Counted from the stretch's first letter, positions 8,510 to 31,589 are shown. The stretch: DNA of 51,084 nucleotides from Candidatus Parcubacteria bacterium (GCA_039795715.1 JBDKLD010000075.1:1-51084), one strand, 5' to 3'. Numbers and translations: made by a program. The notes: generated by a model not told the origin, from the letters alone.

Positions 8510-8557
8510 AAACGAGAGTTCCGCAAGGGACCGTGAGTTCGAATCTCACCGCCTCCG
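8472..8557 (+). tRNA. tRNA-Ser (anticodon TGA), long variable arm
   Basis: GGAGGCG/CGCCTCC acceptor. Anticodon stem CTCGT/ACGAG carries loop CTTGAAA. Variable arm is AGTTCCGCAAGGGACC and T arm is GTGAG-TTCGAAT-CTCAC. Confidence 0.9.
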
Positions 8558-10021: not shown

Positions 10022-10094
10022 ACGTTGTTAGTTTTTTATTTGTAATTTTCTCGGAGCTTTCAAATCTACTGTGAAGTAGTTACTTTTGAAAACA

Positions 10095-11084: not shown

Positions 11085-11117
11085 ATAGCTTGAATGGTAC
11101 TACTTTTTGTGGTTTTA

Positions 11118-12254
11118 TCAACGCTCCGACGAGTGCATATCTGTTGGTAACTTATACGGCGCAAAGCGGGTCAAATTGTCCTTTATCTGCTTTACCCAGC
11201 CGTGATATGCCTTGCCTGAAATCTCATCGAGAAATGGTAGGTCGTCTGCTATTCGATACCATGTTCGGGTCGTGGCGTATCGCTCGATGATTGCCCTTGT
11301 TCCCCGTATGCCTTCCTTGCTCATTACCCTCAAACCGAGCAGGTACAGAGCTTCTTTCGGACTTACCTTTGGCTTGTTTTTGAAGATAGCGTCGAGCGTT
11401 TTGGTCGGACTGCTTTCAACATCGAAAAGAAATAGATTTTTGCCAGTGATGAGTTCATTCCAGTAATCGAGCAGCACTTTTTGGCAAAGGTCTTTATTGA
11501 ACACGTCTTTGAACGTCGGGTTTTCATTGAAGCCGAGTCGTTTCAGAATAGCGTTCAATTTTACCTTCTTTGCGAGCCGTGCTTCGATGCGCAAAATCTC
11601 TTTCTTTTCTTTTTTCGTCAGTGTTTCAAAGAGCGTAAGCTGAACTGCATTTTGGTCTTTGTCTATTGCTCGCTTCTCTGGTTTTTTCAGGTCTTGCACC
11701 TTGTCATAGATGACGAGCGAGTGTGAGTTCGTGTAGAACTGAAGCGAGTGCCCGTTGTTCCTGAAACTATCTCGGTTCAAATCCATTTTCTTGCTCACAT
11801 CAATTTTGTGAAGTTCGTTAATGACAAAGCTCGAAGTGTAGCCGTCAGCCAGTTCGATGTTCTTTGCTGGATGAAAAGCCGACACGCTGGCTTTCCGTAA
11901 AACTTCTTTCTGTACTTCAACTCTCATCGTCAGCATCGCATCGTAGAGAGCTGAAATCACTTTTTCAAAATCCTTTCCCTCAACTTCCTCAACATTGTTT
12001 CCGTGAAGCATCTTGGCAACAGAGAACTCTATTTTGAGCGGTATTTCATTACCGTTTTTTGTCGGTCTTTTCATCAGGGTCAATCGTGGCTTATACCTTT
12101 CGTTTTTCTTGTCCGTCGAGGTCGGATTGTTCACGCATTTGACGAGAAAGTTCCCAGCCATTTTCAGAATGTTTGCGTTCGGCGTAAACGCATTTGGGTC
12201 GAGCTTATATGACCCTCTCGGTATGGTTAGTATTACTGTGTCCAGCATATTCAT
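11118..12254 (-). CDS. Rolling-circle replication initiator, filamentous-phage gene II / CRI-like
   Basis: MLDTVILTIP parallels the MIDMLVLRLP start of f1 gpII. LKIEFSVAKMLHGNNVEEV parallels VEIKASPAKVLQGHNVFG. ILRIEARLAKK parallels LVRFEARIKTR. The comparison is from my memory of the f1 sequence. Confidence 0.55.
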   Translation of the reverse strand: MNMLDTVILTIPRGSYKLDPNAFTPNANILKMAGNFLVKCVNNPTSTDKKNERYKPRLTLMKRPTKNGNEIPLKIEFSVAKMLHGNNVEEVEGKDFEKVISALYDAMLTMRVEVQKEVLRKASVSAFHPAKNIELADGYTSSFVINELHKIDVSKKMDLNRDSFRNNGHSLQFYTNSHSLVIYDKVQDLKKPEKRAIDKDQNAVQLTLFETLTKKEKKEILRIEARLAKKVKLNAILKRLGFNENPTFKDVFNKDLCQKVLLDYWNELITGKNLFLFDVESSPTKTLDAIFKNKPKVSPKEALYLLGLRVMSKEGIRGTRAIIERYATTRTWYRIADDLPFLDEISGKAYHGWVKQIKDNLTRFAPYKLPTDMHSSER

Positions 12255-12558
12255 TACTTCTTTTATTTTGATAAGACAAAATCTCTTCTGCTTTTTCGAT
12301 AATCGCTCGCTCTATTTCTGAAGCCATATTCCTGCGTATCGGATGAAAAACATTGAAGTTTTTGCCGTTCAGATTTTTGGTCGGATAGGTTATGCGGTAG
12401 CCCGTTCCGTCGAGCTTGGTATGCACGCCGATTGAGCCGAGGTACAAACTGCCGTCCACAACGACGCTTGCGATTGCGACCAGCCCATTATTCGGCTTGA
12501 TTGGTATTACTTGTATTTCCGTTATTTGCATACAGATGCGGATTAACTCTTTTATCAA
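12205..12558 (-). CDS. SpoVG-like DNA/RNA-binding protein
   Basis: MQITEIQVIPIKPNNGLVAIASVVVDGSLYLGSIGVH resembles the SpoVG N-terminus. The true start may be that Met at 12531. The 3' end overlaps the Rep gene by about 50 nt. Confidence 0.5.
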   Translation of the reverse strand: MIKELIRICMQITEIQVIPIKPNNGLVAIASVVVDGSLYLGSIGVHTKLDGTGYRITYPTKNLNGKNFNVFHPIRRNMASEIERAIIEKAEEILSYQNKRSNEYAGHSNTNHTERVI

Positions 12559-17692: not shown

Positions 17693-19204
17693 TTATTTAT
17701 GGCTAATAAGCTCACTTAAGTATGATTTAACTTTTTTCATATCAATCGATTCACCGGATTTCAACTTTGATTCAGCATCAATCGAAAAATTAATTTTATA
17801 GTGTTCTTTCATTTCAAAATATGAAGAAAGCAGGCCGGGACCAAATCCCCCACAGAGCGCGATGTCATTAATACCTTTTTCTAAAAGTGTATCGATCTTT
17901 TTCTCTATATTGGTCTTTGCATCCTGTTTGCCAGCACCTCGGCTGTTGTCAATCATCAAAAACGTCTTATGTTTCAAGACTTCCTCGACAAATTCCGGAT
18001 CATCCACCAAATGGAATTCCTCGTCCGAGAGAGGAATATCAACCAAGAAAAACTTATTGGCATACTTGAGTACTTTCAAGTGGTCGCTAGTTAAATCATT
18101 TAGTCGAATATATTTAACATATGGTAACTTTTCTCTAATGAGCGCAACGTCTTTGAGAGGGTCGGTTGAAAATTTGAATGTAAAATGGAGAATTGGCACG
18201 AACCCTTCGAAATATTCGGAAGCTTTGCAGATTGCTTCAATTTTCTTCAATTCATGCGGATCGTTGAGAATGTGCGAATCGGCATACACACCGAGGCAAA
18301 TTTTGAGCAATGGATCTTTCTTTAAGCCCGCCATGAAATTGCCGATTTCAGTGACCTGCTCCGGTGACTCAACATAGGTGAATTGATAAAAGTAATTGCT
18401 CTCATCTTTTCCAAAAAAGTGCTTGAATTTTTGTCGCTTTGTTTCGAAGTAACGTCGATTGTAACTGTTACTTTCAATGACCAAAGGAATGCGGTCAGTA
18501 ATGGTAATGCCTAATCTCGCAATTTCAGAAACCTTTGAAGGATTGTTTGTAATCAACTTTATTTCTTTGACGTTCAAGTAATCAAGAACTTTTTTTACCC
18601 AAGAATATTCTCGGTAGTCTGGTTTGTGACCTAAAAGAATATTGGCTTCATGAGTATCATATCCTTTATCCTGCAGGATGTAAGCTTTAATCTTTTCATG
18701 TAAACCAATACCGCGCCCTTCTTGGCGAAGATAGATAAAGACTCCATTGCCACTTTCTGAGATCATAGAGAGTGACCGGTCTTTTTGTTCTTCGCAGTCA
18801 CATCGATAACTATGGAATGTATCCCCTGTCAGACACTCGCTATGGACTCGTACGAGAACTGGTTTACTGGTATCGAGGTTTGGTGTTTGTAAAAAAATAA
18901 TCTCTTCACCTTTTTTCTGATTCCAAACATTGAAATAAAATGTGCCCTGCTTTGTAGGAAGAAGGGTGCCGACAATATCGTTTTCTGGTATATCCCTTGT
19001 TTCTACTTTGCCTGTGCGTATTGCATCAACAGGAACGTTATAGAGATCAGACAATAATTTTGCCTGACTAAGAGTGACCTCTTTCTTTCCGTTCTCAATC
19101 AGGGTTAACGTAGGGCGAGAAATACCCAGCCGTTTTGCTATCTCATTTTGAGATAAATCCGCTGCTTTTCGGAGGCGGGTAAGCAATTTAGGACTATTTT
19201 TCAT
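17693..19204 (-). CDS. Three-domain fusion: XRE-type HTH + GTP cyclohydrolase II (RibA) + phosphoribosylanthranilate-isomerase-like TIM barrel
   Basis: The HTH is LSQNEIAKRLGISRPTLTLIENGKK. RibA blocks are VRVHSECLTGDTFHSYRCDCEEQ, YLRQEGRGIGLHEKIKAYILQDKGYDTHEAN and LITNNPSK. TrpF-like blocks are LKICLGV, FLMIDNSRGAGK, IALCGGFGPG and NFSIDAESKLKSGESIDMKKV. Confidence 0.75.
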   Translation of the reverse strand: MKNSPKLLTRLRKAADLSQNEIAKRLGISRPTLTLIENGKKEVTLSQAKLLSDLYNVPVDAIRTGKVETRDIPENDIVGTLLPTKQGTFYFNVWNQKKGEEIIFLQTPNLDTSKPVLVRVHSECLTGDTFHSYRCDCEEQKDRSLSMISESGNGVFIYLRQEGRGIGLHEKIKAYILQDKGYDTHEANILLGHKPDYREYSWVKKVLDYLNVKEIKLITNNPSKVSEIARLGITITDRIPLVIESNSYNRRYFETKRQKFKHFFGKDESNYFYQFTYVESPEQVTEIGNFMAGLKKDPLLKICLGVYADSHILNDPHELKKIEAICKASEYFEGFVPILHFTFKFSTDPLKDVALIREKLPYVKYIRLNDLTSDHLKVLKYANKFFLVDIPLSDEEFHLVDDPEFVEEVLKHKTFLMIDNSRGAGKQDAKTNIEKKIDTLLEKGINDIALCGGFGPGLLSSYFEMKEHYKINFSIDAESKLKSGESIDMKKVKSYLSELISHK

Positions 19205-19654: not shown

Positions 19655-20242
19655 ATGGAAAACATATCGCCAGATGAAAAGCTTTTGCCAATCGAAATCA
19701 TAAAAGATAAGATTTTCTATATTCGAGGTAAAAAAGTCATGCTCGATAAAGACTTGGCTCTACTGTATGGCGTACCGACCAAGCGTCTCAACGAAGCAGT
19801 AAAGAGGAATATTGGCAGATTCCCACTAGATTTCATGTTTCAGCTAGATAAAAAGGAAGCTGGACTATTTTCAAGGTCACAAATTGTGACCTTGAAACCT
19901 GGAAATACAGACAGAGGTAATGGTAATCCTTCTCTAAGGTCGCAAATTGCGACCTTAGAGACCGGCAGGGGTAAGTATGCAAAATACTTGCCAATGGTTT
20001 TCACTGAACAAGGCATTGCTATGCTCTCCTCTGTCCTCAATAGCGACAAGGCAATTCAGATAAATATTCAAATTATCAGAATTTTCATCAAACTCAGGGA
20101 GATGATCGATGCCTACCAAGACCTTCGTGAAAAAGTCGAGGAAATGGAGCAGAATAATGAGACCAATTTTAGAGAAATATTCAGAGTAATCAAACTCCTC
20201 ATAGTCAAAGAAAATAGGCCCAAAAGGGAGATTGGTTTCTAA
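19655..20242 (+). CDS. ORF6N (KilA-N-like) domain DNA-binding protein
   Basis: IFYIRGKKVMLDKDLALLYGVPTKRLNEAVKRNIGRFPLDFMFQL, RSQIVTL/RSQIATL and KYLPMVFTEQGIAMLSSVLNS are the typical ORF6N-family blocks. Confidence 0.8.
   Translation: MENISPDEKLLPIEIIKDKIFYIRGKKVMLDKDLALLYGVPTKRLNEAVKRNIGRFPLDFMFQLDKKEAGLFSRSQIVTLKPGNTDRGNGNPSLRSQIATLETGRGKYAKYLPMVFTEQGIAMLSSVLNSDKAIQINIQIIRIFIKLREMIDAYQDLREKVEEMEQNNETNFREIFRVIKLLIVKENRPKREIGF
19871..19895. repeat. 25-bp palindrome, copy 1 (inside ORF6N gene)
   Basis: tcaaggtcacaaattgtgaccttga. Confidence 0.9.
19934..19958. repeat. 25-bp palindrome, copy 2 (inside ORF6N gene)
   Basis: ctaaggtcgcaaattgcgaccttag. Confidence 0.9.
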
Positions 20243-20263
20243 GGTCACAATTTGTGACCTTAG
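20239..20263. repeat. 25-bp palindrome, copy 3 (spans ORF6N stop codon, inverted centre)
   Basis: ctaaggtcacaatttgtgaccttag. Confidence 0.9.
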
Positions 20264-20316
20264 AGCTATGGCCAGGGCTTTTCAGTGACAATCAGGATTT
20301 TGCTACAATACAATGC

Positions 20317-21090
20317 ATGTCCTCCCTCCTCACCTCCCTCAAAAAAGAGCTCCGTGCGCTCGGCACACCGGAACGAGCACGGCTTTGCGCTTGGTTTTTT
20401 AAAACTGCGCCCGGACAATACGGCGAAGGTGACATTTTCATCGGCATAACTGTTCCCGCACAAAGAGCAACCGCAAAAAAGTATGGCAACCTTTCCCTCT
20501 CTGACATAGAAAAACTTCTTCAATCACAAGAACATGAATTCCGCCTCACAGCACTCATCCTTTTGGTCGCCAAATATAAGCAAGCTGAGCGCTCCAACTC
20601 GAAAAAATCCCAGAAACAAATTTTCTCCCTATACCTCAAAAACACAAAATCGGTGAACAATTGGGACCTCGTTGATTCAAGCGCAAGCTACATCGTCGGA
20701 ACATACCTAGCCACATGCCCAGCAACCGAAAGAATGCGCACTCTCATGCGCCTGGCCAAATCAAAACTCCTTTGGGATAGACGAATAGCGATGATCTCCA
20801 CGCTCGCCTTCATCAGCAAAGGACACCACGCAGAAGCCATCGCCATTGCAACCATTCTCGTCGACGATAAGCACGAACTAATACAGAAAGCCGTTGGTTG
20901 GATGCTTCGAGAGATAGGCAAGAGAGCTTCACTAGAGGCCGAGCTCTCTTTTTTGCATAAATACGGTGCAACTATGCCTCGAACCACCCTCCGATATGCT
21001 ATAGAAAAATTCCCAAAACACGAGCGTCAGATGTATTTGGCGCTTCGGCACACGCTTTCTCGCACCACATCGAAAAAGAGCCCCAAATAG
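20317..21090 (+). CDS. DNA alkylation repair protein (AlkD-like HEAT-repeat family)
   Basis: FFKTAPGQYGEGDIFIGI, NNWDLVDSSASYIVG, WDRRIAMISTLAFI and QKAVGWMLREIGK. Met at 20317 (MSSLLTSLKKEL) is preferred over 20254. Confidence 0.75.
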   Translation: MSSLLTSLKKELRALGTPERARLCAWFFKTAPGQYGEGDIFIGITVPAQRATAKKYGNLSLSDIEKLLQSQEHEFRLTALILLVAKYKQAERSNSKKSQKQIFSLYLKNTKSVNNWDLVDSSASYIVGTYLATCPATERMRTLMRLAKSKLLWDRRIAMISTLAFISKGHHAEAIAIATILVDDKHELIQKAVGWMLREIGKRASLEAELSFLHKYGATMPRTTLRYAIEKFPKHERQMYLALRHTLSRTTSKKSPK

Positions 21091-21190
21091 CGTCATTCCT
21101 CTCTCCCCCTAGAGACCCCCTTGCCAAATCCTAAAACATGCTACTATATGGGGAGTCTATTAATAGGTAATAAGCAAACGCAATTAATAT

Positions 21191-21448
21191 ATGGCACCAA
21201 AAGCAAATTCCGCATTTATGAAGCCAATGAACCTTAGCGAAGAACTCGCTGAAGTCTGTGGCAAGAAGGTCATGCCTCGCTCAGAAGTCGTCAAAGCTCT
21301 CTGGGTCTACATCAAGAAGCACAATCTTCAGGATCCAAAGAACAAGCGTAACATCATTGCAGATGATAAACTCAAGCCAGTCTTCGGTGGTAAGGCAGTG
21401 GTCAACATGTTTGAAATGACCAAGCTTGTTTCAAAACACCTTTCGTAA
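21191..21448 (+). CDS. SWIB/MDM2 domain protein
   Basis: LSEELAEVCGKKVMPRSEVVKALWVYIKKHNLQDPKNKRNIIADDKLKPVFG is a typical SWIB domain. Confidence 0.8.
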   Translation: MAPKANSAFMKPMNLSEELAEVCGKKVMPRSEVVKALWVYIKKHNLQDPKNKRNIIADDKLKPVFGGKAVVNMFEMTKLVSKHLS

Positions 21449-22099: not shown

Positions 22100-22171
22100 G
22101 GCCCCGTCGTTCAATGGATAGGACAAGAGTTTGCGGAATTCTAGATGAAGGTTCGATTCCTTCCGGGGTCA
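22100..22171 (+). tRNA. tRNA-Arg (anticodon GCG)
   Basis: GGCCCCG/CGGGGTC acceptor and GTTC/GGAC D stem. Anticodon stem AGAGT/ATTCT carries loop TTGCGGA. T arm is GAAGG-TTCGATT-CCTTC. Confidence 0.85.
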
Positions 22172-22182
22172 CAGATTTTAAT

Positions 22183-22208
22183 AAAAATACCTTTAAGAAG
22201 GTATTTTT
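22183..22208. terminator. Bidirectional hairpin between tRNA-Arg and the folD stop
   Basis: AAAAATACCTT-taag-AAGGTATTTTT (11 bp). It overlaps the folD stop codon. Confidence 0.65.
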
Positions 22209-23013
22209 ATTTCCCCCATAACACATTCCAAAAAAGACTGGCCACTGTTATTGGTCCGACACCGCCCGGGACTGGTGTCATTAATGAAGCTTTTTCAACG
22301 CACGCCGGATGAATATCTCCAGCCAGCTTCCCGCTTTGTTCACTCGTACCAGCATCAATCAGGATAACGTCTTTTTTAATCACGTTTGGCGTAATGAAAT
22401 GAGGTTCTCCAACGCCGGTAATAATAATGTCGGCATTTTGTATCTCTGCCAGACGTTCGACTATGGACGTGCTTCTCCTTATTTGAATATAGGGAATTTT
22501 TTCTTTGGCTAACATTGCCGCGACCGGTGCGCCAACGAGCCTTCCGTTACCCACAACAAGAATTCTTTTGTTTTCTAAATTGACATTGTTAAGCTTAATA
22601 ATTTCCCAAACTGCCTTTGCTACAGGAGGTACTCGGTCGCCTTCACCCATTCGATATGTATCCATGGCAGCTGCACTCAAGAGATCAATATCTTTATCTA
22701 AAGGAATAGCAGAAATAATTTGCTCCGTATCAAGACCAAGAGGCAACGGCAACTGCACGACGATACCATCATAGGTATCATCCAGGTTGTTTATAAAGAT
22801 TACTGCATCTTCCGTGGTGCGGACTTCTTTCTTAAACCTTGTCGTTGAAATACCGACACGCTCAGCAAAGCGTTCTTTCATTTTCACAAACTGCTCACTG
22901 GCAGTATTATCACTGAATAGAATGAAGGCTACTTTTTTCATGGGCAAATTTTTAAGCTTCAACTTGAGCTCGTTCTCCATTTCATTCGCAATTTTATTGC
23001 CATCAATAATCAT
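22207..23013 (-). CDS. folD: Bifunctional 5,10-methylene-THF dehydrogenase / methenyl-THF cyclohydrolase
   Basis: 268 aa. VGNGRLVGAPVAAMLA and TPVPGGVGPITVASL are typical FolD blocks. Confidence 0.88.
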   Translation of the reverse strand: MIIDGNKIANEMENELKLKLKNLPMKKVAFILFSDNTASEQFVKMKERFAERVGISTTRFKKEVRTTEDAVIFINNLDDTYDGIVVQLPLPLGLDTEQIISAIPLDKDIDLLSAAAMDTYRMGEGDRVPPVAKAVWEIIKLNNVNLENKRILVVGNGRLVGAPVAAMLAKEKIPYIQIRRSTSIVERLAEIQNADIIITGVGEPHFITPNVIKKDVILIDAGTSEQSGKLAGDIHPACVEKASLMTPVPGGVGPITVASLFWNVLWGK

Positions 23014-23017
23014 ATTA

Positions 23018-23653
23018 TTAATTATATCTCTGAATCACCTTTTCAAACTCTTCAATCGAGTACACAAAGTGTAGCCAGTCATATTCCTTCGGATCCTTTA
23101 CTGAAGTACAGAGTGTTTTCATTTTTTCTTTGATGAGGTGCTCCCAGTCTGTACCGTTTTTTGTCTGAAAGAATATAAGCGGTGTCATCTTTATATTATG
23201 TCCCCCATATTTATTCATTCCATCATTCACAACATTTTCATGGAAAACAATAGTCTCCTCTAGTTCAGTGCCGTCCCCACCAAGCGGGCAGACTACGGCA
23301 ATATCGCCAGAAACAACCACCTTCAATCGCTGAAAGATATCTTCTGAAACATCTGTAAATGATGCTTCCTTTACTCTTTCCCATAAACCATCATGCTGTT
23401 GTTGTGGCACGCCGATGTTCAAGAATGGAGAAAGACTATTCTCGGTAATATATTTATTTGCGGTATCACTTGTTGCAGACATTGCTCCCCCACTGTAACC
23501 GCCATGAATAATACCGTAGCCACTTTTGAGCAGTACTTCTGTAAACTGTTCGATTGCTTTGTATTCTTCGCTTGATGGATCTATTGTAGATTTGCCGAGT
23601 ACTGACGCAAAACGATTCGCACCCGATTTTTCTTTCATTTCTTGTAATGTCAT
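23018..23653 (-). CDS. LOG/TIGR00730-like Rossmann protein (nucleotide 5'-monophosphate N-glycosidase family)
   Basis: IIHGGYSGGAMSA and VVCPLGGDGTELEE resemble the GGGxxGxM and PGGxGTxxE LOG motifs. Confidence 0.55.
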   Translation of the reverse strand: MTLQEMKEKSGANRFASVLGKSTIDPSSEEYKAIEQFTEVLLKSGYGIIHGGYSGGAMSATSDTANKYITENSLSPFLNIGVPQQQHDGLWERVKEASFTDVSEDIFQRLKVVVSGDIAVVCPLGGDGTELEETIVFHENVVNDGMNKYGGHNIKMTPLIFFQTKNGTDWEHLIKEKMKTLCTSVKDPKEYDWLHFVYSIEEFEKVIQRYN

Positions 23654-23655
23654 AT

Positions 23656-24492
23656 TTATATGGCAATGGGAAAATTGATCTTCTCCCCGTGCTGATAATT
23701 AGTAAATGTTGTATCTGTGAACTTCCAATTGAGTATACCTGTAAAACTTTCTGTGATAGCGGCGGGATAACTGGAATTTTCTACCTCCAATAACTTCTTC
23801 GCTCCTTCAATATGGTTTTCATAAAGCTCTACCTGTCCGAACATGCCTATTACTTTTCCCTCCTCGTAACCTGTCTCTAAACAAATTAGGTGAAGGAGCA
23901 AGGCGTGCTGAGCAAAGTCATTTGGCAAACCGAGACATACATCTGCACTTCGCTGATAAAATATCAGGCAAAGTTCATCTCCGTATTTAAGTATCTGAAA
24001 AGCAAATGGGCACGGGGGTATCGACTGCTGATCGATGTCTTTCGGATTCCATTGTGATACAACGAGCCTTTTGCTTTCTGGGTTTTCTTTAATTTTCTCA
24101 ATTAGCAACTTAATTTGATCTACTCCTTGGTCCGTGTAATCGCCTATTCCTTTGTAATCAGCTCCAAAATTTCGCCATTCGAATCCATATGTAGGGCCAA
24201 GATCGTTGGGATTTTCTGATTGATTACTTTGCCACTGATCCCAGAAGTGACAGCCGCGATCGGTCAGCCATTTTTTATCTGTGTAGCCCTTGAGATAAAA
24301 TTCAGTTTCCACTCTCATGCTTTTCTGCGGCATTTGACGAAGTGTACATAGTGGGAATCCAAGCTTCATGTCGTGTTCAATTGTTTTTCCCAAAAGACTG
24401 TATGCTGAAATTCCTGATCGAGTTAGCCTCAAGAAACCTTCATTTAAACATTCTTTAATTATTTCTTTGTATTGTGTATCGAAGTTTTTCAT
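23656..24492 (-). CDS. Thymidylate-synthase-fold enzyme, predicted (d)CMP C5-hydroxymethylase/methylase rather than ThyA
   Basis: ThyA blocks are present: TRSG, FWDQW, DLGPTYGFEWR, IPPC and YQRSADVCLGLP. However, LGLPNDFAQH replaces LGLPFNIASY, putting Asp at the Asn177 position. Cys-His becomes Cys-Pro, and GDTHLY becomes GQVELY. Confidence 0.65.
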   Translation of the reverse strand: MKNFDTQYKEIIKECLNEGFLRLTRSGISAYSLLGKTIEHDMKLGFPLCTLRQMPQKSMRVETEFYLKGYTDKKWLTDRGCHFWDQWQSNQSENPNDLGPTYGFEWRNFGADYKGIGDYTDQGVDQIKLLIEKIKENPESKRLVVSQWNPKDIDQQSIPPCPFAFQILKYGDELCLIFYQRSADVCLGLPNDFAQHALLLHLICLETGYEEGKVIGMFGQVELYENHIEGAKKLLEVENSSYPAAITESFTGILNWKFTDTTFTNYQHGEKINFPIAI

Positions 24493-24496
24493 ATAT

Positions 24497-25258
24497 TTAT
24501 CTACTTGGCTTCTTTGCCTGCATTACTAAGGTGAATGGAATCATTTTAGATTTACTTTTTGAGTACGTGCTTGAGAAAACGTGTTTCTTTTCTTTGTCGT
24601 TATTCGTCGTAATCTCATGGAATGCCGTCACATCGAAACCTGCTTTTTTGAGAAGTTGGAACCAAGTACTCGGCTTAGCCTGAAATGATTGAATGTTATA
24701 GCCAGTTTGATTCCAATTGAATCGCACTGTCGGTTTTTCCTGATTGTATGAGTTCTGAAATACTACTTTACCGTCATGCTCATCTACTACCCTGACCAAA
24801 TAGTGATCCCAGCTAAAGGTGAACGTGCCGCCTGGTTTGAGAACTCTGAATACTTCCCCCAAAGTCTTCTCAATGTCTTCGGACCAGCCGATTCCATACA
24901 CACTGAATACTTCATCGAACGTGTTTTCGGAAAAAGGAAAGTCTTTCGACATATCAGATGTTTGGAAAGAAATTTCCTTGCTTCCGTACTTCTTTTTCGC
25001 CTCATTAATGCCGTTTTGGGAGATATCGATACCGATATATTCTTTTGGGTTTTTCTTAGCGACAAACGGTACTGATTCTCCTATACCACAACCGATCTCC
25101 AATAATGACTTGCCCGTGATAGTTAATAGTTTAGGAGTTAGGTCTGAGCCTGACGAATGGAGTCCCCACGAAGGAAGAAAGGTTCCTCCTGAATGGTAAT
25201 CCCCTGAGTAAAGGGAGTTCCAAGCCTTGGCGTTATTGGTTTTTACCTTGTTTTTCAT
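24497..25258 (-). CDS. Class I SAM-dependent methyltransferase
   Basis: SLLEIGCGIGES (motif I), IGIDIS and LKPGGTFTF. It is the first gene of the tight four-gene operon. Confidence 0.75.
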   Translation of the reverse strand: MKNKVKTNNAKAWNSLYSGDYHSGGTFLPSWGLHSSGSDLTPKLLTITGKSLLEIGCGIGESVPFVAKKNPKEYIGIDISQNGINEAKKKYGSKEISFQTSDMSKDFPFSENTFDEVFSVYGIGWSEDIEKTLGEVFRVLKPGGTFTFSWDHYLVRVVDEHDGKVVFQNSYNQEKPTVRFNWNQTGYNIQSFQAKPSTWFQLLKKAGFDVTAFHEITTNNDKEKKHVFSSTYSKSKSKMIPFTLVMQAKKPSR

Positions 25259-25328
25259 GTCTATAGTTTACAACTTTAATTAAGTATTGTACCGTTTTTT
25301 AGTCATATTTTAAGTTATCCACAGTTTT

Positions 25329-25346
25329 ACCTTTATTTATAAAGGT
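25329..25346. promoter_or_regulatory. Palindrome in the divergent promoter region (candidate operator)
   Basis: ACCTTTAT-tt-ATAAAGGT lies between the methyltransferase operon and the divergent TrmB-like regulator. Confidence 0.3.
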
Positions 25347-25393
25347 TATGGTATAGTAATTGTGTGTCCGATTTTCCGACATATTAAAATTAT

Positions 25394-26140
25394 ATGAACC
25401 AAATCACTGTTTTACTGCAAAAATATGGGTTTAGCGAACGCCATTCAAAGGTATATCTTCACCTTCTCTCAAGCTTAGAGGATACGGTACTTGGGGTAGC
25501 TAAAGCCACCAATATACCTAGGACGACCGTATATACAATCCTGACTGACCTTAAGGACCAAAACCTCGTATCCACCTTTAGGAAGAACAAGGTTCAGTTC
25601 TGGACGCCAGAAAGTGTAAATCAGCTCCAAGTTAATCTCGAGCAGAAGCAGGAAGTCGCTGACTCCCTCGTTCCCCTTTTACGTGACATCACGAGCAAGT
25701 CCCACCTCGGGGATTCTTCGATCCGTATGTTTACCGGAAAAGAAGGCTTGAAGATCGTTTGGGAAGACATCATTTCCTGCCTCGAAGCCGAGAAGCCGCC
25801 TTTTGTATATGCGATCTCTCATACGGACCTGTATTCTATTTTGCCGAAATACTTTCCAGCGTGGATTGAGAGACGCAGAAAGTCTAAAGTTTTTGCAAAA
25901 CTGATTGTCCATCATGGGCACCAGCACCTTCGTTCTGATAGCGGGCAGGAAGTCCGTGCCATGCCAGAAAAATATATTTTTACAGGCGATCTTACTATCT
26001 ATGGGAAAAAAGTAGCCATCTTTGTATTTGAAAAAGACCGATATGAATCGATTATTATTGACTCTCCTGCTTTCGCACAAATGATTCAGGGAATATTTAA
26101 TTACACCTGGGATAATTTGGGAGAGACGGCAAAGATTTAA
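25394..26140 (+). CDS. TrmB-family transcriptional regulator (wHTH + C-terminal sensor domain)
   Basis: LLQKYGFSERHSKVYLHLLSSLEDTVLGVAKATNIPRTTVYTILTDLKDQNLV is a TrmB-type winged helix. Confidence 0.75.
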   Translation: MNQITVLLQKYGFSERHSKVYLHLLSSLEDTVLGVAKATNIPRTTVYTILTDLKDQNLVSTFRKNKVQFWTPESVNQLQVNLEQKQEVADSLVPLLRDITSKSHLGDSSIRMFTGKEGLKIVWEDIISCLEAEKPPFVYAISHTDLYSILPKYFPAWIERRRKSKVFAKLIVHHGHQHLRSDSGQEVRAMPEKYIFTGDLTIYGKKVAIFVFEKDRYESIIIDSPAFAQMIQGIFNYTWDNLGETAKI

Positions 26141-26407: not shown

Positions 26408-27007
26408 TTACATCTCAGATGTAATCGTTGACAAGATTTTTCCTATTTCTCCAGAAAAATTCTTTTTTAGTATATGCATTTTAGTTTCAAATTTTGCCAG
26501 AAACCCAAAAAACTTTGCCTTGAATATTTCGTTATCGATACTATTTGCGGCTTCTTCTTGATCTTCTCTATCATTGATGCCCACAGATTTCAAAAATGCC
26601 AATCCATCTAGAGGCAGTAGCATGGCAAATTCACGACTACCCGCTTCTAACTTCAAAACATTGCTCTTAATGGTATTTTGTTGGCATTCCAAAGAGGTAA
26701 GAAATTGTTTCTTGTTTTCTTTGGTTGGGTTGCCCTGAAAAGATGATTCTGTTATATTGTTTTTTTCCATCAATTCCTTATTATGCGCTTCATACATTTT
26801 TGAAGCTTCGTAAAAACTTTCCGTGGATTTGAATATACGCTCTACTGTTTCCATATTTTCAGAAGTAATTTTCTCTGCTTTGTCGTGCAGAAAATCCTGA
26901 TGCTCTGGGTTTTTGGTAGTATCTATAACACTAAAAACCCTCTCGCTCAATTCCTGTTTTTTCTTTTCTGCTATTTCCTGTTCAGTTGGGGTATGCATTG
27001 TTTCCAT
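26408..27007 (-). CDS. Hypothetical helical protein
   Basis: 199-aa ORF rich in Glu and Lys. No motif recognised. Confidence 0.5.
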   Translation of the reverse strand: METMHTPTEQEIAEKKKQELSERVFSVIDTTKNPEHQDFLHDKAEKITSENMETVERIFKSTESFYEASKMYEAHNKELMEKNNITESSFQGNPTKENKKQFLTSLECQQNTIKSNVLKLEAGSREFAMLLPLDGLAFLKSVGINDREDQEEAANSIDNEIFKAKFFGFLAKFETKMHILKKNFSGEIGKILSTITSEM

Positions 27008-27073
27008 ATTTTTTAGTATATCATTTTGAGACCAAATACCATGAACACAGGGGGGGTTGAGTAAGGATGTGTT

Positions 27074-27835
27074 TTATTTCCTGCTATCCCACAACCCCTT
27101 AAAGACTTCCCTTAGATTGTGCGCCATAACAGCGTCATGAATTTCAATGAGGTAATATGGCCTCTGCTTGGTGATGATCATGATGACATATGAACCGACA
27201 ATCCACTGGGTTGCCGAAAATGCATCCGTCGCCCATGGTTTTATATGGCGGCGATGGGAATATTTTTTATCTATCATCTTTTTTTCCACATCAGCATTAT
27301 TTGAAAATAGTTTAAGGTCCCAGTCTTTCGGATCTTCCTTCCATATCCAATCTATCCATTTTTCAAATTTCTCGACAAATGTATGGTCTTGGAAACCCCA
27401 CCATGTGCGCTCCCCTTCTTTCATGCTTTCGTTCCACCTAGGCGCAGCCTCGAATAAGTACTTGTCGAGATCAACTTCATCGACAAACCTGATTTTCGGC
27501 ACTGAATATGTTTTTGACTCTGGGATATTTTTCAAGAAATCCTGCAGTTCGCGAATAGAACTGACTTTGTGCTTTATTTTTTCATTCTCGGCCTCGATCA
27601 CTTTTTCGAGTTCCTTTTCCTTAGCAGGCAGGTAGTAGAGGGTTTTGCCTCCCAAATCTTCAACAATAAGGCCTTTATCTTTGAGCTCCTTAGCCACACC
27701 GTAGACAGTGGTTCTGTTTATCTTGGCTAGCCTAGAAATAAACGCAGGGGCGATCTTCCCATGCTCAAGAATGAGCTTATAGACAGTTTGTTCCTTATTC
27801 CCCAGACCAAGGCTATGCATTACTTTTTCTATCAT
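27074..27835 (-). CDS. TrmB-family transcriptional regulator (second copy)
   Basis: LGLGNKEQTVYKLILEHGKIAPAFISRLAKINRTTVYGVAKELKDKGLI. The C-terminal end, IEIHDAVMAHNLREVFKGLW, parallels the first copy. Confidence 0.75.
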   Translation of the reverse strand: MIEKVMHSLGLGNKEQTVYKLILEHGKIAPAFISRLAKINRTTVYGVAKELKDKGLIVEDLGGKTLYYLPAKEKELEKVIEAENEKIKHKVSSIRELQDFLKNIPESKTYSVPKIRFVDEVDLDKYLFEAAPRWNESMKEGERTWWGFQDHTFVEKFEKWIDWIWKEDPKDWDLKLFSNNADVEKKMIDKKYSHRRHIKPWATDAFSATQWIVGSYVIMIITKQRPYYLIEIHDAVMAHNLREVFKGLWDSRK

Positions 27836-27932
27836 GACCTTATTCTATCATAGTTGTTGATTATTTGTCAACACTTTATATCAAAATACGCATAAAACCT
27901 TGTTAAATATAGCTATTTTCGTTGTTTAGGTA

Positions 27933-27961
27933 TTGACATTACTTGACAAATCTGATATCAT
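27933..27961 (+). promoter_or_regulatory. Sigma70-like promoter for the ABC transporter operon
   Basis: TTGACA, a 17-nt spacer, then TATCAT, about 30 nt upstream of the SBP start. Confidence 0.4.
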
Positions 27962-27991
27962 ATGTGCATTACTATTAGTTAATTATTAATT

Positions 27992-28819
27992 ATGAACAAA
28001 TACGGAAATATTGTTACAGGTGTTATCGCAGTAGTCGCTCTTGTCGTCGCTTTTGGGGCCCAGAAAGGTACAAAGGCAGAGTCAGTAGCGGATAAAGTTA
28101 TTAATAACGGCGAAATTCGAATCGGGTATATCATCTATCCCCCTTCGATGATCAAGGATAAGAAAACAGGAAAGCTTTCTGGTTTTTCATATGACCTCGT
28201 TGAAGCAGCTGCAAAGAACCTTGGTGTTAAAACAAATTGGGTCGAAGAAGTAGGCTGGGGTTCAGCAATTGAAGGCTTGAAGACCAAGCGTTACGACATT
28301 GTTGGAACTCAAATCTGGCCAAACTCAGCACGTGCTCGTGAGGCTGTATTTTCTATGGCTCCCTTTTACAGTGGTATTTACCCATATGTTCGTACAGGTG
28401 ATACCCGCCTTTCGAACGACTTATCGAAAATAAATTCAAGCAATTATACGCTCAGTATTCTCGATGGTGAAATGTCATCTTTTATCGCAAAACAGGATTA
28501 CCCATTGGCAAAGGTAAATGCTCTTCCTCAGCTCTCTTCATACGCTGAAGTATTCCTCAATGTGACAAACAAAAAGGCTGACTTAGCTTTTGCTGAACCT
28601 TCTGCCGCTAATGACTTCCTTAAATCGAATCCGGGAACTCTCGTACGTGCTACGGATAAGCCTATTCGCACATTCGGTTTGGATTTTGCATTCGCACGCG
28701 GTGAAGATTCTATGGCTGCAATGTGGAACACTGCACTCGAAGAGCTAGTAAACGACGGTACAGTTGCCCGCACGCTTGAAAAGTACGGCGTGTCTAACGA
28801 CTATATCCTCGCGAAGTAA
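27992..28819 (+). CDS. ABC transporter substrate-binding protein (family 3, polar amino-acid type)
   Basis: N-terminal anchor. IRIGYIIYPPS...GFSYDLVEAAAKNLG...RYDIVGTQIW is SBP_bac_3-like. Confidence 0.75.
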   Translation: MNKYGNIVTGVIAVVALVVAFGAQKGTKAESVADKVINNGEIRIGYIIYPPSMIKDKKTGKLSGFSYDLVEAAAKNLGVKTNWVEEVGWGSAIEGLKTKRYDIVGTQIWPNSARAREAVFSMAPFYSGIYPYVRTGDTRLSNDLSKINSSNYTLSILDGEMSSFIAKQDYPLAKVNALPQLSSYAEVFLNVTNKKADLAFAEPSAANDFLKSNPGTLVRATDKPIRTFGLDFAFARGEDSMAAMWNTALEELVNDGTVARTLEKYGVSNDYILAK

Positions 28820-28849
28820 TCGCAAAAGTAACTAATTACAGAAAATTAT

Positions 28850-29503
28850 ATGTGGAACGTATTAATCAACTATCACCAATTATTGCTCCAAGGTTTTTTG
28901 ACCACACTCAAACTCCTTGGGTCAATTATCCTCATTGGGGTTCCGCTCGGAACCCTGTTGGGTGTAATCGGCGGCAGGCACAGTCCGGAACTTGGCAAAA
29001 TAATTAAGGGTGCACGGTTCGTCACAAAAGTTGTACCGGTGCTTGTGCTCTTGTTTTGGCTCCATTTCCCCCTGCAAGGATTACTTGGTGTCGTAGTTGA
29101 TCCGTTCTGGACGACGATCGTCGCTCTTGGGCTGATTAATATGATTTCCACAGCTCACATTGTTACTACGGAACTTGAGTTACTTCCTAAAGCCTACAGA
29201 GAGGCTGGGACTACACTCGGTATGACCAAAAATCAGATAACAAAATATATTGAATTACCTTTGCTACTCCGAAGGGTAATGCCACAACTTCTACTCAACC
29301 AGGCGGCAATGCTTGAATACACTCTGTTCGCAAGTCTGATTTCAGTTCCGGAATTATTCCGGGTCGCCCAAACAATCAATGCCATGGTCTACAAACCAGT
29401 CGCGATATATTCCCTTCTCGTCATCTTCTTCTTGGCTATTCTCGCACCGCTTCATCTCTCGGTTTCTTGGTTTCAAAAGAAATATGCTAACCAATATGCT
29501 TAA
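28850..29503 (+). CDS. ABC transporter permease (His/Glu/Gln/Arg type)
   Basis: 217 aa, multi-TM, with the EAA-loop-like REAGTTLGMTKNQITKYIELPLLLRRVMP. Confidence 0.8.
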   Translation: MWNVLINYHQLLLQGFLTTLKLLGSIILIGVPLGTLLGVIGGRHSPELGKIIKGARFVTKVVPVLVLLFWLHFPLQGLLGVVVDPFWTTIVALGLINMISTAHIVTTELELLPKAYREAGTTLGMTKNQITKYIELPLLLRRVMPQLLLNQAAMLEYTLFASLISVPELFRVAQTINAMVYKPVAIYSLLVIFFLAILAPLHLSVSWFQKKYANQYA

Positions 29504-30617
29504 TATTAAAAACGCCACAAAAAAATATATTCATGATTCCGAAATAAGAGGAATCAGTGATATTTCTTTTTCGGTAATCCCCGGAGAAATTATTTGCGTA
29601 CTCGGAGCAAGCGGTTCTGGTAAAAGTACACTTCTCCGTGCGCTCGCCGGTCTTGAACTACTAGATAATGGCAATGTTGAAACTGATCAAAAATGTTTAG
29701 TGAGTTATGTTTCTCAGGAATATACACTTTGGCCACACCTTACGGTGCTTGAGAATTTAACTTTGGCACCAAAATTAGTGGGTAGTGAATTAAATAAAGA
29801 AACTACGACCGAAGCAAAAAAACTTTTGGAGAGATTTGGATTAATTGAGTACGCCAATAATTATCCGAGCGAACTCTCTGGCGGACAAAAGCAACGAGTA
29901 GCTTTGCTAAGAGCAATTATGGCAAAGCCAAAAGTGCTTTTGCTCGATGAGATAACTTCAGCCCTTGATCCGGAACTTACCAAAAGCGTCCTCGACCTCA
30001 TCCGTGCACTCGCCAAAGATGGCTACACAATGGTGATAGTCACCCACCACATGTCTTTTGCCCTATCTGTGGCAGACCGAATCCTTTTCCTCAAAAATGG
30101 AAGTATCTTACAAGACAAGAAATCGACTCAATTCTTTTTTAATCAATCAGATCCTGAAGTACGGTCGTTCATTGCTGATATTGCGAGACAAGATGAATCA
30201 ATAGAGGTCTTTCGTGGTATTGAGCAATTCCAGGCTTACCATATCGGTCTCATGAAGCGTTTGCCAGAAAATTCTACTATCTATGTCGCAGGTGCAGTTG
30301 GTGACGCTTGGTACGCGCCAATGGCAGAATTTTATACTCTCTACGAAAAGCTTCGCATTGAGAAAAAAATTATCTGGAAAATGGTTACGTATGATCAGGG
30401 AGAAAAAGACAAACAGCTATTGCGAGATTTCCCTGAACTAAACCAGTTCAGGGAAATGCCAAGAAATATTCAGAACCCAGCAAACTACAACGTATTTGGG
30501 GATACGGTCATTACTCAAATATTTAGCGACGAACCAACAATCATACAAATTAAAAACCAAGACGTGGCAGATGCATACATGCGATTCTTCGAAGAGCTTT
30601 GGGAATCGGGTAAATAA
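29493..30617 (+). CDS. ABC transporter ATP-binding protein with C-terminal TrmB-sensor-like domain
   Basis: Walker A GASGSGKST, signature LSGGQKQR, Walker B LLLDE and H-loop VTHHM. The last ~135 aa parallel the C-terminal domains of both TrmB-like proteins. The start is ATG at 29493 (ATGCTTAA overlap with the permease stop), not 29379. Confidence 0.8.
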   Translation, partial: NMLNIKNATKKYIHDSEIRGISDISFSVIPGEIICVLGASGSGKSTLLRALAGLELLDNGNVETDQKCLVSYVSQEYTLWPHLTVLENLTLAPKLVGSELNKETTTEAKKLLERFGLIEYANNYPSELSGGQKQRVALLRAIMAKPKVLLLDEITSALDPELTKSVLDLIRALAKDGYTMVIVTHHMSFALSVADRILFLKNGSILQDKKSTQFFFNQSDPEVRSFIADIARQDESIEVFRGIEQFQAYHIGLMKRLPENSTIYVAGAVGDAWYAPMAEFYTLYEKLRIEKKIIWKMVTYDQGEKDKQLLRDFPELNQFREMPRNIQNPANYNVFGDTVITQIFSDEPTIIQIKNQDVADAYMRFFEELWESGK

Positions 30618-30793
30618 GTACTTTGTTCCCCAACCCCGTACAAGGAGGTCATATAAGAGGCCCGGCTCCCTTTTCCGGGGTTATACCCTCCCCTTTGTTA
30701 ATGCTAGACTATGCATATCTTCTAGACTAAGTTTAACCAAGGAATGTCCTTGAATTAGTTCGGAAAGCCAGAGACTAGGTTCACAGCGATTAG

Positions 30794-30824
30794 AAAAAGC
30801 ACCATTTAGGTGCTTTTTCTTTTA
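30794..30824. terminator. Bidirectional terminator between the ABC operon and the convergent methyltransferase
   Basis: AAAAAGCACC-attta-GGTGCTTTTT (10 bp), with T-runs on both strands. Confidence 0.65.
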
Positions 30825-30944
30825 CACTGTGACGGGCGGAGGCATGTTTTTTCAGCAGGAAAAACAGCCGAGCCGGGGTCGCGAGATTTTCCGAGCGACG
30901 GCGAGGAAAATACTTGTGACCACCATAACAATTTTCGGTTAGCT

Positions 30945-31589
30945 TTATAGTCTTTCCAAGATGCATAGATGGGCCAAAGCACCTGCTTCTTCGCAGTTTG
31001 TCATTTTCAAACCAGCTTTATTTGCCAACTCTTCCAATTCATCTTTAGTAAACTGCTCTGAAGTATAGGCTCCAACGCTTTCATCGAAAGTTACATAGCC
31101 ATCCTTTACTTTTTTTACAGGAACCCCGATTTGCTTGTACATTTCTAGCCTTTCATTTAGAGCTTTTTCCGAATAGACACTGACAATAATCTTTCCATTT
31201 TCTTTAGTTACTCTTTTCGCTTCTTCAAGAGCCTTAACTTTTTTGTCCGCAAAATTAACCAGTGTCATCATTAGAACAGTACAGTCGAAAGTATTTTCCT
31301 TGAAAAAAAGGTTGGTTGCATCGGCTTGTTGTATATCTACCGATGGATACTCTTTGAGATTTTCTTTTGCGTCTTTGATGGCTTGTGGGTCATTATCGAT
31401 TCCTGTAATGTCGCTTGTAATATTTAGTAATGAAATAATGTTGCGACCATTACCGCAACCTACATCTAGAACCTTAGCATTATTGGAAATGTGGCTGCGT
31501 AAATACTCTTTTTCTTTCTCGAAGAGGACTTGGAAGCCAGGTGATGGATTTTCTTCAATTCGTTCCCAAAAATCTATATTTGCTGACAT
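30945..31589 (-). CDS. Class I SAM-dependent methyltransferase
   Basis: VLDVGCGNGRNIISL motif I, ITGIDNDP and GKIIVSVY. Confidence 0.75.
   Translation of the reverse strand: MSANIDFWERIEENPSPGFQVLFEKEKEYLRSHISNNAKVLDVGCGNGRNIISLLNITSDITGIDNDPQAIKDAKENLKEYPSVDIQQADATNLFFKENTFDCTVLMMTLVNFADKKVKALEEAKRVTKENGKIIVSVYSEKALNERLEMYKQIGVPVKKVKDGYVTFDESVGAYTSEQFTKDELEELANKAGLKMTNCEEAGALAHLCILERL

Follow-up and report, generated by a model that had tools for sequence, protein, structure and literature searches.

We analyzed a stretch of 51,084 nucleotides from Candidatus Parcubacteria bacterium (GCA_039795715.1 JBDKLD010000075.1:1-51084; its whole length is called the window here), which carries a compact minus-strand operon encoding a class I S-adenosylmethionine (SAM)-dependent methyltransferase (MT), a thymidylate synthase (TS) paralog (ThyA-like), a divergent relative of the LOG/PpnN nucleoside 5'-monophosphate (NMP) phosphoribohydrolases (LOG-like), and FolD. 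All four open reading frames (ORFs) are intact and are separated by gaps of only 4, 2, and 4 nt. The named homologues of the window's proteins are from Patescibacteria of the Nomurabacteria/Paceibacteria type. The genes of the operon and the elements that border it are as follows.

24497-25258, minus strand: MT, 253 amino acids (aa); class I SAM-dependent methyltransferase of the MTa family; first gene of the operon
23656-24492, minus strand: ThyA-like, 278 aa; thymidylate synthase paralog with predicted action on C5 of a cytosine nucleotide (CMP favored)
23018-23653, minus strand: LOG-like, 211 aa; predicted LOG/PpnN-family nucleoside 5'-monophosphate phosphoribohydrolase (N-glycosidase) of a divergent subfamily
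22207-23013, minus strand: FolD, 268 aa; methylene-tetrahydrofolate (THF) dehydrogenase/methenyl-THF cyclohydrolase; last gene of the operon
22180-22211, minus strand: AT-rich hairpin with a 14-bp stem at the FolD stop, identified by RNA folding
25394-26140, plus strand: TrmB-family regulator with an N-terminal winged helix-turn-helix and a C-terminal effector domain (PF01978 TrmB, 49 bits)

This layout agrees exactly with the coordinates and the 2- to 4-nt spacing given in a first-pass annotation of the stretch, and the divergent TrmB-type gene that it placed 135 bp upstream does start exactly 135 bp from the MT start. The hairpin that it described at the FolD stop is also real: RNA folding gives a free energy of -12.9 kcal/mol and a z score of -5.07, and none of 200 shuffled sequences was equally stable. 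The hairpin, which is absent from the minus-strand matches of a consensus terminator scan, faces a convergent tRNA-Arg(gcg) at 22100-22172 and is likely a bidirectional terminator common to the operon and the tRNA gene.

The ThyA paralog carries the residues of a cytosine-specific enzyme

By family, the ThyA paralog is a thymidylate synthase (PF00303 Thymidylat_synt, 227 bits). Its best relatives in the Protein Data Bank (PDB) are true TSs (E = 3e-53); the 60 best matches, all at 150 bits or more, are TSs without exception, and neither MilA nor the phage T4 dCMP hydroxymethylase (dCH) is among them. Ungapped alignment to the solved TS structures nevertheless sets the motif GLPND in the paralog against G(L/V)PFN in TS. 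We therefore describe the specificity positions in E. coli numbering, from an alignment of 120 ThyA homologues with E. coli ThyA, whose sequence has 264 residues with Cys146 and Asn177 in place. The clade to which the window's protein belongs comprises 78 sequences that are 45 to 100% identical to it.

The window's protein retains Cys146, Glu58, Tyr94, Arg21, Arg166, Ser167, Asp169, Trp80/83, Ile143, and the C-terminal ...AI, and at the specificity positions it has Lys126, Pro147, Asn176, Asp177, Gln205, and Glu207. These substitutions belong to a signature that covaries across the clade. Asp177 and Glu207 are each present in 78 of 78 members, mostly together with Pro147; position 205 is Gln or Asn, and Lys126 (SKR in the window's protein versus SRR in E. 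coli) is found in 72, with Arg in the other 6. All 38 canonical TSs recovered in the same search have Arg126, His147, Asn177, Asp205, and His207. Because Asp177 is invariant in the clade and is joined by Lys126, Pro147, and Glu207, the ThyA paralog is predicted not to be a normal thymidylate synthase; instead, the sequence comparisons place it as a recent offshoot of canonical bacterial TS. An Asp at the position of TS Asn177 marks enzymes that act on cytosine substrates (PMC5175136; PMC6400193). The assignment of the paralog to the cytosine type, which the first-pass annotation had made, is thus borne out by its main determinant, and we consider predicted cytosine specificity well supported.

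The preferred sugar is less sharply marked. In MilA and BcmA, which we compared through their published residues, ribose preference is marked by Lys133' in place of TS Arg126' and by Ala176 in place of TS Ser167 (PMC5175136). Lys126 points in the same direction, as does the coordination of both the 2'- and the 3'-OH of ribose by LOG/PpnN enzymes (bioRxiv 10.1101/2025.04.13.648610), and a preference for a ribose nucleotide is moderately supported. All 78 clade members keep Ser167; the MilA-type Ala, a further point for ribose in operons of this type, is seen only in the divergent paralogs of loci L010/L011. The very divergent paralogs of L010, L011, and L018, which lie in the same TrmB|MT-ThyA-LOG arrangement, combine Arg126 with Ala167, Asp177, and Glu207.

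Related paralogs occur in several other settings. At L022 (4813-6891) and also at L023, genes for a low-molecular-weight phosphatase and an HD-domain YfbR-like 5'-nucleotidase precede an Asp177/Glu207 paralog, an arrangement that reads as an alternative to the LOG partner. L026 has an Asp177/Glu207 paralog with TrmB and methyltransferases and no LOG-like gene. At L055 (763-6565), a divergent TrmB gene, an Asp177/Glu207 paralog, a TPMT-like methyltransferase, a Cupin_8 (JmjC-type) oxygenase, and a second TrmB gene are found together; the oxygenase could hydroxylate a 5-methyl group. L024 (4894-8080) is a dCMP deaminase-kinase-ThyA-dihydrofolate reductase (DHFR)-Tmk operon whose ThyA is of a different Asp177 class, with Tyr147 and the canonical Arg126, Asp205, and His207, and it may represent a dTMP route of reversed order, from dCMP through 5-methyl-dCMP to dTMP. 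The clade member at L054 (2941-6275; protein P0067) has Asp177, Glu207, and Lys126, with Asn for Tyr94 and Tyr for Trp80; a DHFR gene follows 3 nt downstream, and the locus adjoins a RuBisCO large-subunit gene. Finally, L053 (1-10846) has an Asp177/Glu207 paralog with Arg126 and Ile147, and its phage-like surroundings encode a VapE-like protein, an SNF2 helicase, and a small terminase. Natural Asn177-to-Asp enzymes are thus diverse in Patescibacteria, and the window's version is the one that gene order wires to a predicted NMP glycosidase.

The LOG-like protein has the predicted fold and catalytic residues of LOG/PpnN enzymes

At the level of profile searches, the LOG-like protein has only a subthreshold Pfam match to SLOG LDcluster4 (17.8 bits against a cutoff of 26.3 bits; E = 0.0026). 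A search of PDB sequences at E <= 10 returned three LOG-type chains only and no MilB or BcmB. Its predicted structure is more telling. The AlphaFold2 (AF2) model built from the family alignment has a predicted local distance difference test (pLDDT) score of 96.1, and all 50 of its best Foldseek matches in the PDB are LOG, PpnN, or YgdH (TM scores, 0.65 to 0.73; E values down to 1.4e-8), at 14 to 19% identity to the solved LOG/PpnN structures. MilB and BcmB are absent from these top 50 as well.

The family's invariant residues lie in HGGYxGGxM, PQxxHD..W.R, Arg109, P.GG.GT..E132, and HEN. When aligned with type II LOG by phmmer, Arg109 falls on the catalytic Arg of LOG (FxRK), and Glu132 (PLGGDGTELE) falls on the Glu of the PGGxGTxxE motif. 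LOG and PpnN enzymes require this catalytic Arg and motif Glu (R241/E264 in PpnN) and another Glu (PpnN E223, PaLOG E74) by which the 2'- and 3'-OH of the ribose are held (bioRxiv 10.1101/2025.04.13.648610). From the confidently modeled fold and the two matched residues, we predict a LOG/PpnN-type phosphoribohydrolase. Two suggestions of the first-pass annotation, that the protein is LOG-like and that the glycosidase differs from MilB/BcmB, therefore stand.

The LOG-like family is small, with 31 clusters at E <= 1e-10 among 1.84e9 representatives. It has no viral relative in IMG/VR, and we rejected a viral origin on that ground.

The methyltransferase, ThyA-like, and LOG-like genes recur together

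We drew LOG-like loci from GTDB genomes, metagenomes, and look-ups, clustered their neighboring ORFs, and reduced the set to 33 nonredundant loci. A class I methyltransferase lies within two genes of the LOG-like gene at 27 of the 33; among the six loci without one nearby, two are on truncated contigs and three have the MT three genes away. A ThyA paralog lies within two genes, on either side, at 14 of 33, and the MT-ThyA-LOG group recurs among many relatives in both gene orders. This linkage is far beyond chance. There is also a natural MT::LOG fusion, the 479-aa protein P0356 (L052 246-2435), whose gene adjoins a divergent TrmB gene. FolD lies within two genes at a single locus, that of the window, into which the locus of a 96% relative (L001) collapses; these two are the only cases in which FolD is linked to the module. 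The first-pass annotation had treated the four genes as one unit, and the neighborhood survey upholds this for MT, ThyA-like, and LOG-like, which are conserved together, and not for FolD. Neither DHFR, dCMP deaminase, Tmk, nor an extra FolD was found in the window or at any LOG-like locus.

The MT is a class I SAM methyltransferase by its Pfam matches (Methyltransf_11, 73 bits; Methyltransf_25; Methyltransf_31). Its orthologues form a tight group of 23 clusters, whose names are uninformative apart from automatic "UbiE" labels, and its AF2 model (pLDDT 87) has small-molecule and natural-product methyltransferases as Foldseek neighbors. PADLOC gives a generic methyltransferase match for MT and no match for ThyA-like or LOG-like, and we set aside a defense-system reading of the operon for this reason. 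FolD matches PF00763 (73 bits) and PF02882 (124 bits) and falls below the equivalog cutoffs of the NCBIfam FolD models, and is therefore divergent.

The methyltransferases of these modules fall into families that follow the other partners: divergent MTa proteins accompany ThyA-like, MTb proteins accompany a protein that we call F5, and a third MTa branch, to which the fusion P0356 belongs, stands beside LOG alone. F5 is a 152-aa protein with no Pfam match, found at L017 (7660-8118) and eight other loci and always in the order F5-MTb-LOG. It lies within three genes of the LOG-like gene at 8 of the 33 loci, and it shares none of the 33 with a ThyA paralog. The C-terminal domain of the TrmB regulator is homologous to this stand-alone protein of the ThyA-less modules (hhalign, 96.4%; E = 1.4e-9), which makes F5 a sensor-type domain rather than a substitute enzyme. 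A different 275-aa protein without a Pfam match, F6 (L003-L005, L007, L016, L031, L046-L048), takes the place of TrmB beside short-MTa/ThyA/LOG modules. BLASTP found no match of F5 or F6 to the TrmB regulator, and we rejected F6 as a TrmB relative, since further comparison, too, detected no relation of the kind seen for F5. At L014 (9121-9962), the ThyA paralog is split into ORFs of 135 and 77 aa while MT and LOG-like are intact, which suggests a frameshift or pseudogene.

By these patterns, the conserved core of the module is a TrmB-type sensor or regulator, a methyltransferase, and a LOG-like hydrolase. By the same comparison, ThyA-like is an add-on in the window's branch and FolD a recent local recruit.

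Conserved palindromes lie between the operon and the TrmB gene

Orthologues of the TrmB regulator are divergent and upstream of MT in L001, L002, L006, L010, L011, L014, L040, and L052. In the window, the divergent promoter region contains three elements.

25286-25313, minus strand: sigma-70-like promoter TTAAAA-16-TACAAT upstream of MT, a match to consensus only
25329-25346: perfect palindrome ACCTTTAT-AA-ATAAAGGT, a candidate TrmB operator
25365-25381: second conserved element TGTC-N9-GACA, which is a perfect palindrome in L002

The window, L001, L002, and L014 all have the palindrome core CTTTATAAATAAAG, even where MT identity falls to 58%, and the stretch GTACAATA, which contains the -10 hexamer of the MT promoter match, is kept in L001, L002, and L014. 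The TrmB-type regulator probably acts at these conserved palindromes, placing the operon under ligand-responsive control.

Several further genes lie beyond the regulator. The region 26408-31589 encodes a 199-aa protein without a Pfam match, a second TrmB paralog (27074-27835), and an amino-acid-type ATP-binding cassette (ABC) system (SBP_bac_3, permease, and ATPase; 27992-30617) 2.7 kb from the operon; this TrmB2-ABC block is common only to L001. A second class I methyltransferase (30945-31589) was rejected as a member of the module, its similarity to MT being generic only.

A proposed pathway to a free modified cytosine

We propose that this TrmB-regulated Patescibacterial operon first alters a cytosine nucleotide and afterwards sets its base free, yielding a doubly modified free cytosine, and we judge this proposal to have an even chance of being correct. 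From the specificity residues, fold, catalytic residues, gene linkage, and fusion described above, we infer the catalytic steps, their order, and the product as follows. Judging from its residues, the ThyA paralog would transfer the one-carbon unit of 5,10-methylene-THF to C5 of CMP or, less likely, dCMP. The LOG-like protein, by its fold and catalytic residues, would then hydrolyze the N-glycosidic bond to give a free 5-substituted cytosine and ribose 5-phosphate. The SAM methyltransferase, for which the evidence is linkage, may add a further methyl group before or after cleavage, and FolD, recruited in the window's lineage only, would supply methylene-THF. Expression would respond to a small ligand through the TrmB-type regulator, probably at the palindromes. 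The end product would be a small, free, doubly modified pyrimidine, with candidate roles as an allelochemical, a signal, or a salvage intermediate.

Several observations weigh against this pathway. At the first step, the sugar specificity of the ThyA paralog is uncertain, with Ser167 kept where MilA and BcmA carry Ala; we considered Glu207 as a second ribose marker and dropped it because it is also present in the phage-like L053 and DHFR-adjacent L054 members. If dihydrofolate (DHF) is made, a DHFR is needed, and neither the 51-kb window nor the surroundings of the LOG-like loci encode one. Thr93, present in 56 of 78 clade members, is the one feature that resembles the hydroxymethylase signature. 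At the second step, the LOG-like protein lies below the Pfam LOG thresholds, and PF03641 and NCBIfam give no match to it. The second Glu of LOG/PpnN has no clear counterpart: the aligned region reads PQx[Q/E/D]HD, in which position 86 of the window's protein is Gln and Asp88 is invariant. Moreover, modules of MT and LOG occur without ThyA-like, so that LOG may act on something other than a C5-modified CMP. For MT, PDB sequence search and Foldseek return only generic small-molecule methyltransferases, which point to no particular substrate or regiochemistry. Lastly, no dedicated exporter is linked to the operon.

Methyl or hydroxymethyl product

A ThyA-family enzyme with cytosine specificity could leave either a methyl or a hydroxymethyl group on C5, and the two outcomes can be compared through the features that distinguish them. 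The hydroxymethylase signature, as seen in T4 dCH, has an acidic residue, Asp or Glu, at position -3 from the catalytic Cys (Cys-3; TS Leu143), a Ser or Thr next to the catalytic Tyr, a residue other than Trp at position 83, and no C-terminal tail (PMC6400193). Both T4 dCH and MilA lack the folate-covering lid of TS, and both release THF (PMC5175136). In the clade of the window's protein, position 143 is Ile, Val, or Leu in 78 of 78 members and Asp or Glu in none, 70 of the 78 retain Trp83, and the lid of TS is preserved, with ...FPIAI of the ThyA paralog aligning with ...APVAI of E. coli. The DHFR gene that follows P0067 at L054 implies DHF production. Because of the hydrophobic Cys-3 residue, the retained Trp83 and lid, and this DHFR-followed relative, we favor TS-type reductive methylation: 5-methyl-CMP plus DHF appears about twice as likely as 5-hydroxymethyl-CMP. 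The (d)CMP hydroxymethylase assignment of the first-pass annotation is weakened by this comparison.

Viral contigs provide a reference for the other outcome. At least 112 TS-like ORFs with Asp177 are present on IMG/VR contigs (L056-L175), and the 112 sampled have Cys or Val at position 83, Thr93, Ser126-Lys127, Leu147, Asn205, and His207; Glu207 occurs in none of them. By these residues they form a clade separate from the window's and are probably dCMP hydroxymethylase-type enzymes.

Since a 5-methyl product is likelier, the reading closest to bacimethrin biosynthesis is lowered. In it, a CMP hydroxymethylase would act first, the LOG-like enzyme would free 5-hydroxymethylcytosine, and MT would O-methylate this to a bacimethrin-like analogue of the thiamine pyrimidine. 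The three-enzyme logic is that of BcmA/B/C (PMC5175136, PMC4081090, PMC12345177), Asp177 and Lys126 match MilA/BcmA, Thr93 resembles the Ser/Thr of the hydroxymethylase signature, and the lack of a linked DHFR fits THF rather than DHF as the folate product. In addition, bacimethrin has been reported in freshwater, with its producers unresolved (PMC12637900, PMC12345177). Against this stand the absence of Asp or Glu at Cys-3 and the retained Trp83 and lid, the latter missing in both proven (d)CMP hydroxymethylases. The Ala176 of MilA/BcmA is Ser in the ThyA paralog, one clade member is DHFR linked, and the window ORFs scanned with Pfam include no ThiD2, thiaminase, or dedicated transporter; the 51 kb contain no ThiD-like kinase at all, as the first-pass annotation had observed. 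We consider an antivitamin of this kind unlikely. Tailoring of a base followed by its release, the core of the pathway that the first-pass annotation sketched, is thus retained here, with its hydroxymethyl or bacimethrin-like product made less likely by Cys-3, Trp83, the lid, and the DHFR-linked relative.

Other explanations of the operon

A cytosine-tailoring pathway that ends in a released, doubly modified base also has to be weighed against other roles. The first is an alternative supply of thymine or thymidylate to a cell that scavenges nucleotides, in which CMP or dCMP would be 5-methylated and the base released or deaminated for salvage, with MT incidental. The TS-like chemistry features of the ThyA paralog, the presence of FolD in the operon, the Asp177 paralogs in classical dTMP contexts (the dCMP deaminase-kinase-ThyA-DHFR-Tmk operon of L024 and the ThyA-like-DHFR pair of L054), and a thymidine kinase gene about 7 kb from the module in L018 all fit such a role. 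MT, however, is not an incidental gene, since no other partner is as constant and one protein even joins it to LOG; neither the window nor the LOG loci have a linked deaminase, phosphorylase, or Tmk; the module is TrmB regulated and patchy in distribution; and the closest homologues outside the clade include canonical Asn177 TSs. On balance, this explanation seems distinctly improbable.

Still less probable, and in our view very unlikely, is sanitation or catabolism of the nucleotide pool, with MT and LOG-like treating noncanonical NMPs to harvest ribose 5-phosphate and the ThyA paralog being an adjacent, ordinary TS. LOG/PpnN enzymes do free ribose 5-phosphate from NMPs, bacteria of the candidate phyla radiation (CPR) draw carbon from nucleotide ribose, and MT + LOG modules exist without ThyA. 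Yet Asp177, Lys126, Pro147, and Glu207 cannot be reconciled with a TS of the standard, dUMP-specific kind, the ThyA-like gene is interleaved with MT and LOG at 2 to 4 nt and in both gene orders across relatives, and SAM-consuming methylation is hard to square with catabolism.

Remodeling of the dCMP pool for 5-methylcytosine- or 5-hydroxymethylcytosine-containing genomic DNA, as in phages XP12 and T4, was the alternative raised by the first-pass annotation and is extremely improbable: one Asp177/Glu207 member does lie in the phage-like locus L053, and Asp177 TS-like enzymes are common on viral contigs, but the viral enzymes are a different clade, IMG/VR yields no relative of the LOG-like family, and the operon has no linked gene for a dNMP kinase, dCTPase, or glycosyltransferase. 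A modified nucleotide would also be destroyed by a LOG-type glycosidase, and PADLOC is empty for ThyA-like and LOG-like.

Other features of the window

The window contains further elements away from the operon. At 38974-39047 on the minus strand, ARAGORN calls a tRNA with anticodon TTA ("Stop"). Folded by hand into a standard cloverleaf, with a single base at position 26, a variable loop of 5 nt, and U33/A37, the sequence gives tRNA-Lys(UUU) with a G27.A43 mismatch. We rejected a suppressor tRNA, which is unlikely because 32 of the 49 ORFs end in TAA, more than in any other stop codon.

The region 8000-12558 is probably a tRNA-integrated mobile element, judging from its gene content. An HNH endonuclease ORF overlaps tRNA-Ser(tga), which a large serine recombinase (8546-10021) abuts; after the recombinase come a Germane-domain protein, a Phage_CRI-like replication protein (11118-12254), and SpoVG.

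On the minus strand, 17693-19204 encodes a 503-aa fusion of HTH_3, GTP cyclohydrolase II, and a 263-aa C-terminal region for which no Pfam or PDB sequence match was found. Between this fusion and tRNA-Arg, 19655-21448 encodes an ORF6N-domain protein, an AlkD-like DNA alkylation repair protein, and a SWIB-domain protein.

Implications of the module

Despite the minimal metabolism of Patescibacteria, a dedicated and regulated module is retained in many of them, one that would spend folate one-carbon units and SAM on a free modified pyrimidine. If the cytosine-tailoring pathway is correct, a new enzymatic solution joins the small set of pathways to free modified cytosines, and the biology of LOG reaches beyond purine cytokinins to pyrimidines. 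The operon would also be a concrete lead on how CPR bacteria might interact chemically with hosts or competitors, including possible sources of environmental thiamine antivitamins. More broadly, CPR genes annotated "thymidylate synthase" include at least two natural Asn177-to-Asp classes, which bears on metabolic reconstructions.

A wider speculation, which we regard as rather unlikely, is that the MT + LOG-like modules, with or without the ThyA paralog, are an unrecognized class of "nucleobase hormone/antimetabolite" synthases in Patescibacteria, through which these ultrasmall episymbionts release free methylated pyrimidines as allelochemicals or host-directed signals. Such compounds could include a bacimethrin-like thiamine antivitamin and thus a hidden environmental source of it, and a cell that imports intact thiamine and is without ThiD/ThiE would be naturally immune.

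Comparison with known systems

No prior description of an MT/ThyA/LOG module was found in the searchable literature. The predicted combination of a TS-derived cytosine C5 transferase, a LOG-type glycosidase, and a methyltransferase is new, and it has the logic of the early steps of known antimetabolite pathways. The closest of these are bacimethrin (BcmA/B/C) and mildiomycin (MilA/MilB) biosynthesis, in which a ThyA-family enzyme with Asp177 and Lys126' likewise acts on cytosine C5 and an N-glycosidase frees the base; the bacimethrin pathway adds a SAM-dependent methylation, as is proposed for the operon's MT. The differences lie in the enzymes themselves. The operon's predicted glycosidase is of the LOG/PpnN family, whereas the CMP N-glycosidase MilB/BcmB is described in the literature as nucleoside 2-deoxyribosyltransferase-like. 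The ThyA paralog departs from MilA/BcmA in retaining Ser167 and Trp83, a hydrophobic residue at Cys-3, and the C-terminal lid of TS. The operon also has a TrmB regulator and FolD, and it lacks the ThiD2, thiaminase, and linked transporter of the bcm cluster.

Engineered N177D/N229D TS, a dCMP methylase, provides a precedent for the favored chemistry: with Asp at the Asn177 position, an otherwise TS-like scaffold methylates a cytosine nucleotide at C5 and releases DHF. XP12-type mdCMP enzymes, mentioned in PMC5175136, are a phage counterpart. In comparison with both, the ThyA paralog is natural and cellular and has the additional covarying residues Lys126, Pro147, Asn176, Gln205, and Glu207, and its coupling is to a predicted glycosidase rather than to nucleotide kinases. 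T4 dCH and the viral Asp177 enzymes share with it the ThyA fold, the catalytic Cys, and an Asp for cytosine, but T4 dCH has Asp at Cys-3, Val for Trp83, and no C-terminal lid (PMC6400193).

The second half of the proposed pathway resembles cytokinin activation by LOG and the activity of PpnN/YgdH. The predicted fold, the catalytic Arg, and the PGGxGTxxE Glu are alike, and in cytokinin activation, too, a base is tailored as the NMP and then released as free base plus ribose 5-phosphate. In contrast to LOG and PpnN, the LOG-like proteins are a small Patescibacterial subfamily that is always paired with a SAM methyltransferase and has no PAG regulatory domains, and the predicted substrate carries a pyrimidine rather than an N6-substituted adenine.

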